Below, piece after piece: positions 32,616-34,909 of a DNA stretch of 64,000 bases. The notes below the pieces were generated by a model. That model worked only from the letters and a program-made list of their open reading frames with translations. It was not told where the DNA came from and ran no database searches. Each line of letters begins with the position of its first letter. Within the stretch, counting starts at the first letter, position 1. The stretch is from NCBI RefSeq assembly GCF_003334815.1, contig NZ_QOWO01000007.1. One strand, written 5' to 3'. The stretch is from Escherichia coli (GTDB lineage Bacteria > Pseudomonadota > Gammaproteobacteria > Enterobacterales > Enterobacteriaceae). A program made the translations under genes and the position numbers.

Positions 32616-33536
32616 TTACAGAGTTTCCTCAAAGAACGGAGCTAATACTGAAATTGCTTCAGCCACATAGGCTTTGCCGTCATAAAGATCCATATGGTTT
32701 GCGCCTTCAACAATGTGATAGCGTTTATCCTGGCTTGATGCTCGATCGTACAGGTCGTCACTCATCCATTTGCTCCCTGCCTGGCTGCCCGCCACAATCT
32801 GCGTCGGCTGAGTCAGGTACACTTCCGCCATATGGTAAGCATCATAGGTAATAATCTGGTTAAGGCTGCGCAAAGTAGCGTAACCCGGTGCTGTTGGATA
32901 CTGCGCGCGAGGGGTGTGGTAATACTCCCAGGCCTGACGCAGTTCTTCGTTCGGCGCATCGGACTCCTTCATTGGTGCCAGTGGCATAATGGCGTATTCT
33001 CCGCTGCTAATATCGCTGGTTCTGGCGTTTGAACCCGCTTCAACGTATGGCAGGGCATCAATAGATTTCACATTGTTTTCCCAACCATTACGGAATATCG
33101 AACCAATATTGACCGCACTAACGGTACCGATGGCCTTGATGCGGCGATCCTGAATTGCAGCATTGGCTGTATATCCTGCACCGGCACAAATTCCCATCGC
33201 ACCAATTCGGGTATTGTCGACATAAGAAAGCGTTGTCAGGTAATCAATCACGGCACTGATGTCTTCAGTACGAATGTATGGGTTTTCTAACTGACGCGGC
33301 TCGCCGCCACTTTCACCTTGATAAGATGCGTCATAAGCAATAGTGACAAATCCCTTTTCCGCCAGTTTTTTGGCATAGGTTCCGGCCGTTTGTTCTTTAA
33401 CGCCCCCACCTGGGTGAGATAACACAATTGCCTGATACTGACGGGTTTCATCAAATTTTGGAGGGAAATAGATCACTGCAGACAAAGAGATGGTTGGATT
33501 ATTGCTGTTAGTGAAGCTGACTTTATTATTCATCAT
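32616..33536 (-). CDS. ycjY: Alpha/beta hydrolase (dienelactone-hydrolase-like, Cys nucleophile), about 306 aa
   Basis: ORF 32616..33548; start placed at ATG 33536 (MMNNKVSF...) which has an AGGA Shine-Dalgarno; nucleophile elbow GICAG. Confidence 0.85.
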   Translation of the reverse strand: MMNNKVSFTNSNNPTISLSAVIYFPPKFDETRQYQAIVLSHPGGGVKEQTAGTYAKKLAEKGFVTIAYDASYQGESGGEPRQLENPYIRTEDISAVIDYLTTLSYVDNTRIGAMGICAGAGYTANAAIQDRRIKAIGTVSAVNIGSIFRNGWENNVKSIDALPYVEAGSNARTSDISSGEYAIMPLAPMKESDAPNEELRQAWEYYHTPRAQYPTAPGYATLRSLNQIITYDAYHMAEVYLTQPTQIVAGSQAGSKWMSDDLYDRASSQDKRYHIVEGANHMDLYDGKAYVAEAISVLAPFFEETL

Positions 33537-33606
33537 TCCGTTCCTCATGGAGTTGTCGGTTCGTTTTAACGGTTGGTGATATCACTATAGATATTGATCA
33601 TTAAGT

Positions 33607-33639
33607 TGATTAGACCCAAAATCATGATTAGACCTATCA
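33607..33639. promoter_or_regulatory. Tandem TGAT-N-ATCA dyads, candidate LysR-type (PgrR) operator in the ycjY/pgrR divergent spacer
   Basis: TGATTAGACCCAAAATCA immediately followed by TGATTAGACCTATCA; the 10-mer TGATTAGACC occurs twice 18 bp apart. Confidence 0.4.
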
Positions 33640-33673
33640 TTTAAATGATTAATAGATTGCATGGAGATACTGA

Positions 33674-34573
33674 ATGAAGCGTGAAGAAATCGCTGATCTG
33701 ATGGCGTTTGTCGTCGTTGCAGAGGAGCGTAGCTTCACTCGTGCAGCAGCCCGCCTGAGCATGGCGCAGTCAGCTTTAAGCCAGATAGTGCGTCGTATAG
33801 AAGAACGATTGGGATTGCGGCTTCTGACGCGAACCACGCGCAGCGTTGTTCCAACTGAAGCGGGCGAGCATCTTTTGTCTGTTCTTGGCCCTATGTTGCA
33901 TGACATAGATTCAGCCATGGCATCCCTGAGCGATCTGCAGAACCGCCCATCCGGGACAATACGTATTACTACTGTAGAACATGCAGCAAAAACGATATTG
34001 TTACCAGCAATGCGCACATTCCTGAAATCGCATCCTGAAATTGATATTCAGCTCACCATTGATTATGGTTTGACCGATGTCGTTTCTGAACGTTTTGATG
34101 CAGGCGTCCGTCTGGGTGGGGAGATGGATAAAGATATGATCGCCATTCGAATCGGGCCAGATATACCAATGGCTATTGTTGGCTCACCGGATTATTTTTC
34201 TCGCCGAAGTGTTCCAACGTCAGTGTCACAATTAATAGATCATCAGGCAATTAATTTGTATCTTCCCACATCGGGTACAGCAAATCGCTGGAGATTAATA
34301 CGCGGTGGACGTGAAGTTCGTGTTCGCATGGAAGGTCAGCTTTTACTGAATACGATAGACCTGATCATTGATGCTGCAATTGATGGGCATGGATTGGCGT
34401 ATCTACCTTATGATCAGGTTGAGCGGGCTATTAAAGAAAAAAAACTGATACGTGTTTTGGATAAATTCACACCAGATTTACCCGGTTATCACCTGTACTA
34501 TCCACACCGTCGACATGCTGGCTCGGCATTCTCATTATTTATAGATAGGCTGAAGTATAAAGGTGCTGTTTAG
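33674..34573 (+). CDS. pgrR: LysR-family regulator PgrR (YcjZ), 299 aa
   Basis: ORF 33674..34573; N-terminal LysR HTH; GGAG Shine-Dalgarno. Confidence 0.92.
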   Translation: MKREEIADLMAFVVVAEERSFTRAAARLSMAQSALSQIVRRIEERLGLRLLTRTTRSVVPTEAGEHLLSVLGPMLHDIDSAMASLSDLQNRPSGTIRITTVEHAAKTILLPAMRTFLKSHPEIDIQLTIDYGLTDVVSERFDAGVRLGGEMDKDMIAIRIGPDIPMAIVGSPDYFSRRSVPTSVSQLIDHQAINLYLPTSGTANRWRLIRGGREVRVRMEGQLLLNTIDLIIDAAIDGHGLAYLPYDQVERAIKEKKLIRVLDKFTPDLPGYHLYYPHRRHAGSAFSLFIDRLKYKGAV

Positions 34574-34822
34574 CACTACTTGCTGATACATTAATTTAAT
34601 TCTTCTCTTAACGTATTCTCAGTTCCTTTCAACGTTTTGGTCATTTTTTATTCTTCGTACAATGGCGACAGATGCTGATTATGATACCGAAAACGGGTTT
34701 GAACGTGCGAAGCCCGAACGTAGTGTTCGGAGTTCTATGTGCTTTACCGCATTTTGGAGACTATTATTTACACTAAATCTGATTTGATATATTGATACTT
34801 AAAACATTTGATGCTTCCTTTG

Positions 34823-34853
34823 TCACTTTTTTGATGGAAGTTGTTTGCATTTC
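34823..34853. repeat. Copy B of the 31-bp element, 57 bp upstream of the mppA ATG
   Basis: TCACTTTTTTGATGGAAGTTGTTTGCATTTC; contains a possible -35 TTGCAT with AATAAT 17 bp downstream. Confidence 0.6.
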
Positions 34854-34909
34854 TTTAAGGCGAAACAAATAATTACGCATCAATTTTAAAGTCGGTTAGA
34901 GGGAAACTT

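Follow-up and report, generated by a model that had tools for sequence, protein, structure and literature searches.

Conserved TGAT/ATCA motifs in the ycjY/pgrR spacer of Escherichia coli as the probable operator of the LysR-type regulator PgrR

Which bases between the divergent genes ycjY and pgrR of E. coli are recognised by the LysR-type regulator PgrR, and do the numerous TGAT and ATCA motifs found there represent its operator? According to the RefSeq annotation of the E. coli K-12 window (the whole stretch of DNA analysed here, 64 kb), a spacer of 137 bp (33537-33673) divides ycjY, which lies on the minus strand (32616-33536), encodes an alpha/beta hydrolase and is the first gene of its unit, from pgrR (ycjZ) on the plus strand (33674-34573), with mpaA being located downstream of ycjY and mppA after pgrR. 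This confirms an earlier note on this DNA, which had described the spacer as separating the LysR gene pgrR from a ycjY-side unit with mpaA. Between ycjY and mpaA, the ymjC/ymjD region (32408-32545) is annotated as a truncated NAD-dependent dehydratase pseudogene, so that the "operon" of E. coli carries a decayed gene between the hydrolase gene and mpaA. The assignment of PgrR to the LysR family is based on the annotation, on the domains PF00126 (HTH_1) and PF03466 (LysR_substrate), which are present in all homologues listed, and on full-length matches to the solved LysR regulators 3mz1, 3szp/3t1b and 3hhg (E = 1e-29 to 1e-34), while BenM yielded a weaker, N-terminal match (E about 5e-12). The 401 bases around the feature match strain RP437 at 100% identity, and 5,227 of 5,426 complete E. 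coli genomes contain them. With a G + C-content of 33%, the spacer is considerably poorer in G + C than the 64-kb window (51%).

Binding of PgrR to this spacer is already known; new in this study are a corrected, conservation-based parse of the site and a testable layout. In PMC5934670, a PgrR genomic-SELEX peak is placed in the ycjY/ycjZ spacer, and the regulon is given as ycjY-ymjDC-mpaA (repressed), ycjG and ycjXF-tyrR. RegulonDB holds 82 curated PgrR SELEX interactions (PMC6094552). Negative autoregulation of pgrR was shown by CRISPRi promoter-response sequencing and with a tunable-TF strain, and was described as agreeing with a PgrR site known from its own promoter (PMC10505187). The published regulon study on PgrR (YcjZ) is that of Shimada, Yamazaki and Ishihama (2013, as cited in PMC5934670, PMC4797297, PMC6094552 and PMC10505187), and, as far as the citing passages convey it, the locus described here agrees with that regulon in the protein, the spacer, the SELEX peak, the repression of ycjY-ymjDC-mpaA and the autoregulation. 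Spacer binding, repression and autoregulation are taken from this literature throughout. No base-level PgrR operator or consensus was found in the accessible text of the literature citing the primary PgrR study.

In E. coli, TGATTAGACCCAAAATCA (33607-33624) is directly followed by TGATTAGACCTATCA (33625-33639), with TGATCA at 33595 and a third TGATTA at 33646, and the starts of the TGATTA copies are spaced 18 and 21 bp. The sequence thus matches exactly what the earlier note had described, namely adjoining TGAT/ATCA dyads accompanied by nearby TGATCA/TGATTA half-sites. Overlooked by it were ATCATTTAAATGAT (33636-33649), which is a perfect 14-bp palindrome, and a second ATCA-N6-TGAT, ATCATTAAGTTGAT (33597-33610). 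The 10-mer TGATTAGACC occurs in two copies, at 33607 and 33625 (18 bp apart, 33607-33634, plus strand), and nowhere else in the 64-kb window. The role of chance was computed with 5000 dinucleotide-preserving shuffles of the 137-bp spacer. TGAT and ATCA together occur nine times, compared with a shuffle mean of 3.8 (fraction reaching nine: 0.0034), the longest short-range direct repeat measures 10 bp against a mean of 6.2 bp (fraction: 0.0072), and the four dyads that can be built from TGAT/ATCA arms (shuffle mean: 0.22) were reached in none of the 5000 shuffles. As the shuffles reject it, the TGAT/ATCA pattern is not a product of chance. The 137-bp segments of the 64 kb which are densest in TGAT/ATCA (11 copies) start at 33566-33570, over the spacer, and segments with at least nine copies make up 0.15% of all. 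GATTAGAC on its own is unremarkable in the 64-kb window (two found, 0.9 expected).

For a comparison across species, the relatives returned by a first protein search were uninformative for footprinting, as they only comprised proteins of about 88% identity or more. A scan with one genome per species gave 11 orthologous loci (PgrR identity 58-98%, ten of them at least 85%), all of which include a divergent ycjY homologue. The useful range was provided by a metagenome scan with PgrR alignment, which added 80 further loci (52-100% identity); at most of these a YcjY homologue (73-92% identical) is located upstream of pgrR and the spacers are 117-162 bp long. The spacers of 41 lineage-representative PgrR orthologs (55-100% protein identity) could be aligned with no gaps. 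Among five enteric lineages, the mean pairwise identity is 88% for a 70-bp core (33584-33653), compared with 57% for the spacer flank on the ycjY side and 22% for the pgrR leader. In orthologs with 85-88% identical PgrR proteins, the core shares 81-93% of its bases with E. coli, compared with 42-53% for the third codon positions of pgrR. Spacer flanks and synonymous sites are therefore nearly saturated while the core is conserved, and the far higher conservation of the core than of flanks and third codon positions indicates strong purifying selection on it. Single-nucleotide polymorphisms in Escherichia spacers are confined to the flanks, with position 33630 as the only exception. The layout is collinear and gapless in the 41 lineages down to 56% protein identity and consists of a −10-like hexamer on the minus strand, 18 bp, GATTAGAC, 19 bp and TATCA-N6-TGAT. 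The core is also kept beside pgrR where the divergent gene differs from ycjY (loci L046/47, L058, L060, L062/63, L065 and L073), and the element therefore goes with pgrR. Taken together, the TGAT/ATCA stretch is a real and strongly conserved regulatory core and very probably the operator of PgrR.

The best conserved element of this core is the dyad ATCA-N6-TGAT formed by ATCATTTAAATGAT (33636-33649), a T-N10-A box which, on the basis of its conservation and of a dyad scan, is proposed to be the high-affinity recognition site (RBS) of a PgrR dimer and which with its flanks reads TATCA-N6-TGATnAAT (33635-33653). In the 41 lineages its arms match on average at 7.78 of 8 bases, ATCA being retained in 35 and TGAT in 40 of them, and an unbiased dyad scan ranks it at the top with 3.8 of 4 complementary pairs. 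The N6, on the other hand, varies freely (TTTAAA, TTGAGG, CTGGAG, CGGTGG and others). Arms which are kept together with variable spacers are as expected of dimer-binding sites, and across the 41 lineages this signature was found in both of the conserved dyads, the second of which is discussed below. The canonical T-N11-A box is not found, as the conserved dyad gives T-N10-A and the TGAT-N7-ATCA pairing of the earlier note gives G-N11-C or T-N13-A, but the conserved dyad falls under the relaxed T-N10-A/T-N9-A definition. The recognition helix of PgrR (QSALSQIVRR) is almost invariant across the lineages, and four lineages with the helix TQSALSQ(I/L)MRR have altered dyad arms. The two arms did not co-vary symmetrically, the arm variants observed being ATAA or AGAA with TGAT and, in one case, ATAA with TAAT.

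In distant orthologs the palindrome abuts the ATG of pgrR (TGATnAATG) and its N6 carries the Shine-Dalgarno sequence. The site is therefore located in the pgrR leader, which fits with autorepression. Judged from the sequence, the right arm TGAT next to the start codon could in these orthologs be constrained partly as an extended Shine-Dalgarno sequence (GGAGGTGAT). Enterics and locus L035 possess about 20-22 nt of additional leader sequence, in which a new GGAG is found. In E. coli this lineage-specific leader, which is missing from distant orthologs, spans 33654-33673 on the plus strand and has its own Shine-Dalgarno sequence (GGAG, 33663-66). At the old ATG position the leader-bearing enterics and L035 read ATA, ATT or ATC. 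Another ATG is located inside the right arm of the palindrome (AAATGATT). In Citrobacter- and Klebsiella-type loci this ATG shares the reading frame of pgrR, which explains the many database entries of 309 aa compared with the 299-aa form of PgrR, and in E. coli it opens an out-of-frame mini-ORF of ten codons, ending just beyond the start codon of pgrR. A translation start at this ATG is probably an annotation artefact. Inside the first codons of pgrR, a terminator-like hairpin with a T-run was observed (33691-33706; CGCTGATCTGATGGCG TTTGTCG; one found compared with 0.1 expected in a consensus scan), which is probably coincidental coding sequence.

A second, weaker dyad with the same 14-bp geometry, ATTA-N6-TAAT (33609-33622), is proposed to be the activation-type site (ABS), likewise from conservation and scan. 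Most orthologs show ATTA-N6-TAAT at this place, many lineages in the form ATTAGACGGGTAAT, and the E. coli version is ATTAGACCCAAAAT. The dyad includes the conserved block GATTAGAC (33608-33615) as well as a conserved AAT (33620-33622), and it matches at 6.37 of 8 arm bases in the 41 lineages. In the unbiased scan it is the next independent match (2.8 of 4 pairs), and the conservation per column amounts to 83-90% at 33609-13 and 71-88% at 33620-22. The centres of both dyads are 27 bp apart, which corresponds to 2.6 turns and not to an integral number. The third dyad, ATCA-N6-TGAT in ATCATTAAGTTGAT (33597-33610), has perfect arms in E. coli and matches at 4.44 of 8 bases across lineages; its left arm reads ATTA, ACCA, AACA or TCAA among enterics and AAGA or AGGA in distant orthologs. 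Judged by its sequence and position, it is a possible lineage-specific extra site over the ycjY −35/−10 interval. A conserved ATT (33600-02) and a conserved TTG (33628-30) are left unexplained by the two-dyad model.

The position of these dyads relative to the ycjY promoter depends on which hexamer is taken as its −10. The most likely candidate is TATAGT on the minus strand (33589→33584), where TAnnnT is present in 29 of the 41 lineages (TAGATT in most, TATAGT in E. coli, and TAAATT among others); several of the remaining 12 fit after a shift of 1 nt. The hexamer agrees with a sigma-70 −10 at the fixed positions T(−12), A(−11) and T(−7) and is followed seven bases downstream by a conserved CA on the minus strand, whereas the corresponding −35 position reads TAATCn and is poor. 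From the conserved TAnnnT, transcription of ycjY is predicted to start likely near 33577, and relative to this start the centres of the primary, second and third dyad would lie at −65.5, −38.5 and −26.5, respectively. If instead the published predicted −10 TCTAAT (start at ~33602) is used, the dyads would come to lie at about −40 and −13, as in a pure occlusion operator. A perfect 10-bp palindrome, GTGATATCAC (33576-33585), covers the predicted start of ycjY. Only Escherichia and Serratia PL17 retain it unchanged, L031 and S. proteamaculans come close, and elsewhere GATGGGATAAC or a comparable sequence takes its place. SELEX with RNA polymerase holoenzymes gave a strong peak in the spacer for the RpoE-holoenzyme (intensity 17.2) and one for the RpoH-holoenzyme (4.4), and both ycjY and pgrR were called RpoE-dependent (PMC5493296). 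A sigma-E promoter was considered as a candidate and rejected: a −35-like TCAACTT is present (33606→33600, minus strand), but by eye no TC-containing −10 is found at the right spacing, and the TCAACTT motif is not conserved in Citrobacter-type loci.

The earlier note had proposed a LysR-type dyad operator with a different pairing of arms, in which PgrR dimers would occupy the abutting dyads TGAT-N10-ATCA (33607-33624, plus strand) and TGAT-N7-ATCA (33625-33639, plus strand). A regulatory core with LysR-type dyads was indeed found, and in E. coli both of these divergent-arm dyads do occur and stand out statistically. Moreover, TGAT-N7-ATCA has the 15-bp geometry (4 + 7 + 4) of classical LysR boxes, of which ATAC-N7-GTAT of BenM is an example, and its left arm is partly conserved (TG.T at 59-80%). 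The pairing itself, however, is not borne out by the lineages. TGAT-N10-ATCA is composed of the right arm of the 33597 dyad and a non-conserved ATCA, which is lost within enterics (33621-24 reads ATAA, ATTA or ATTG in Citrobacter- and Serratia-type loci); it matches at 4.85 of 8 arm bases in the 41 lineages, and its half-site centres, 14 bp apart, would be a poor fit to a winged-helix dimer. For TGAT-N7-ATCA the match is 6.2 of 8, but 3.8 of these bases come from the ATCA that doubles as the left arm of the conserved palindrome, while its own TGAT arm only reaches 2.4 of 4 (T 61%, G 59%, A 39%, T 80%). In the unbiased scan both score 2.32 of 4, compared with 3.8 and 2.8 for the ATCA-N6-TGAT-type dyads (arm matches 7.78 and 6.37). 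As each of the earlier pairings joins arms of different conserved elements and the non-shared arms are poorly conserved, they are disfavoured, and it appears unlikely that this parse is the right one; TGAT-N7-ATCA is possibly a degenerate contact without being the best-supported pairing. The perfect repeat of TGATTAGACC also rests on a derived base. Position 33630 is A in E. coli and G in 37 of the 41 lineages (and also in L023, an Escherichia-type metagenome contig outside the 41, with a 97% identical PgrR), and position 33634 is C in 23 and T in 18 of them, so that the derived A33630 together with C33634 created the perfect duplication. For copy 2, other enterics have TGATTGGAC(T/C) and distant orthologs (T/G)(G/T)(C/A)TTGnnC, and the repeat region as a whole reads TGATTAGACC and TGATTGGACT in other enterics and GATTAGAC and nnTTGnnC in distant orthologs. 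Its TTG (33628-30) is strongly conserved (80, 95 and 90%) and may belong to the start-site region of pgrR. A tandem, iteron-like array of direct repeats was rejected as a candidate, since the units are not kept as repeats and the exact 10-mer needs A33630.

Conservation of the core could also mainly reflect two overlapping promoters facing each other, with the repeats being hexamers that are read on both strands. From SELEX with the sigma-70 holoenzyme, TAGACC-18-TATCAT was predicted for pgrR and ATGATA-19-TCTAAT for ycjY (PMC3946193), the same pgrR pair was found by our consensus scan, TCTAAT (27 of 41 lineages) and TATCA(T/C) are conserved, and RNA polymerase holoenzymes bind to the spacer in vitro (PMC3946193, PMC5493296). 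Given these predictions, some of the conservation may stem from promoter elements, and the locus does resemble overlapping divergent sigma-70 promoters in having two promoters in a 137-bp spacer and some conserved hexamers which can be read as −10 or −35 on both strands. The difference is that the palindromic arms are kept here and the −7 T is not: this T of TATCAT is found in only 18 of 41 lineages, compared with 35 for ATCA and 40 for the partner TGAT, which is located outside the predicted hexamers, and a dimeric protein site fits better with this pattern. TCTAAT furthermore lacks the critical −11 A, the distance between ATGATA and TCTAAT was counted here as 20 nt (33615-33634), and in distant orthologs, where N6 carries the pgrR Shine-Dalgarno sequence, TATCA would be part of the leader and not a −10. 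Promoter-like sites in the consensus scan were no more frequent than in shuffles (1 vs. 0.9). Promoters as the main cause of the conservation are therefore improbable. Less probable still is that the motifs merely reflect AT-rich intergenic DNA, sites of global nucleoid proteins or an RNA element of the pgrR leader. The low G + C-content of the spacer (33 vs. 51%) would fit with this idea, as would the fact that many other PgrR SELEX targets are AT-rich loci which we take to be bound by H-NS, such as leuO, rfaL and yjgL, and the palindrome could in principle fold as a 4-bp hairpin. Chance, however, was rejected by the composition-preserving shuffles, and the arms persist in orthologous spacers which are rich in G + C. 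An RNA element was rejected, as the fold is no better than that of shuffles (−3.4 kcal/mol, z = +0.98), the arms show no compensatory changes and no credible Rfam match was obtained for the leader (one at E = 0.9).

The core (33584-33653) is thus probably the shared control region of ycjY and pgrR, with its TGAT/ATCA motifs forming the PgrR operator in the two-dyad parse. Other reported targets within the window, ycjG and ycjXF-tyrR, differ from the published picture in that no comparable dyad is present there: ATCA-N6-TGAT with up to one mismatch was found neither in the ycjW/ycjX spacer (25645-25799) nor in the tpx/ycjG spacer (30495-30612). One-mismatch dyads are located at 34822 (GTCACTTTTTTGAT, 75 bp upstream of the mppA start codon) and at 28363 (upstream of tyrR), but as 78 such matches occur per 64 kb neither of them is significant. 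The region upstream of mppA (34574-34909) is rich in TGAT (eight copies), and the dyad search there, which the earlier note had suggested, yielded nothing significant. Direct control of ycjX, ycjG and mppA by PgrR is not supported by sequence alone.

To our knowledge, no regulator of murein-peptide recycling in E. coli other than PgrR has been reported. Across a wide range of loci (L001-L012 and L025-L087), ycjY and pgrR are kept together as a two-gene cassette, with YcjY (73-92% identity) being better conserved than PgrR (55-88%). In organisms other than Escherichia this cassette is not located beside mpaA, ycjG or mppA, and Citrobacter-type loci carry a second alpha/beta-hydrolase paralogue after ycjY. 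Near-identical cassettes were found in Citrobacter, Kluyvera, Shimwellia and Serratia assemblies as well as on five Klebsiella plasmids, of which four are conjugative. Such a distribution points to a horizontal spread of the cassette and to an ancestral function outside murein recycling. It can be proposed tentatively, with somewhat less than even confidence, that the two-dyad operator (ATCA-N6-TGAT at ~−65 and ATTA-N6-TAAT at ~−38 of ycjY) belongs to an old, horizontally mobile cassette of pgrR plus hydrolase gene, which has retained this operator from enterics to distant bacteria rich in G + C, that PgrR is primarily an inducer-responsive regulator of YcjY, and that the link to murein-peptide recycling (mpaA, ycjG, mppA) is secondary and Escherichia-specific.

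How such an operator might function can be outlined in a model, for which we infer the contacted bases from their conservation. One PgrR dimer would recognise the near-invariant ATCA-N6-TGAT (33636-49), and a second dimer of the same tetramer would contact the weaker ATTA-N6-TAAT 27 bp away (33609-22) or, alternatively in E. coli, the extra ATCA-N6-TGAT (33597-33610). If TAnnnT at 33589→84 is indeed the −10 of ycjY, the sites would follow the classical layout of LysR operators. PgrR bound over the weak −35 would repress ycjY, and PgrR bound downstream of, or on, the pgrR promoter would repress pgrR itself. In the presence of a co-inducer the second dimer would be expected to change its position, and the model accordingly predicts an inducer switch of the classical LysR type; it also points to ycjY, rather than the recycling genes, as the ancestral target. 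For experiments, the corrected operator gives the exact bases to be mutated, namely 33636-39 and 33646-49, followed by 33609-12 and 33619-22. Its use lies in curation and in the design of footprint and reporter work; as an ordinary operator of a known kind it leaves the view of the LysR regulator family unchanged.

In classical LysR systems the RBS is located near −65 and the ABS near −35, and T-N9/10/11-A boxes are found in the family (PMC8407307). Compared with the classical divergent operators of BenM/CatM, CbnR, AtzR and OxyR, the putative PgrR operator differs in its box, a 14-bp ATCA-N6-TGAT (T-N10-A) instead of a 15-bp T-N11-A dyad, in the extra perfect dyad of E. coli (33597-33610) and in its positions of −65 and −38, which are predicted ones. 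PgrR has moreover been described so far only as a repressor, with no known inducer. Several features are shared with these systems: regulator and target are transcribed divergently, a strong interrupted dyad with conserved arms and a free spacer is accompanied by a weaker dyad two to three helical turns away, over the weak −35 of the target, the conserved region measures about 55-70 bp, and the regulator represses its own gene (for PgrR: PMC10505187). If ycjY transcription starts near 33577, the two dyads would also share the classical positions, at about −65 and −38.
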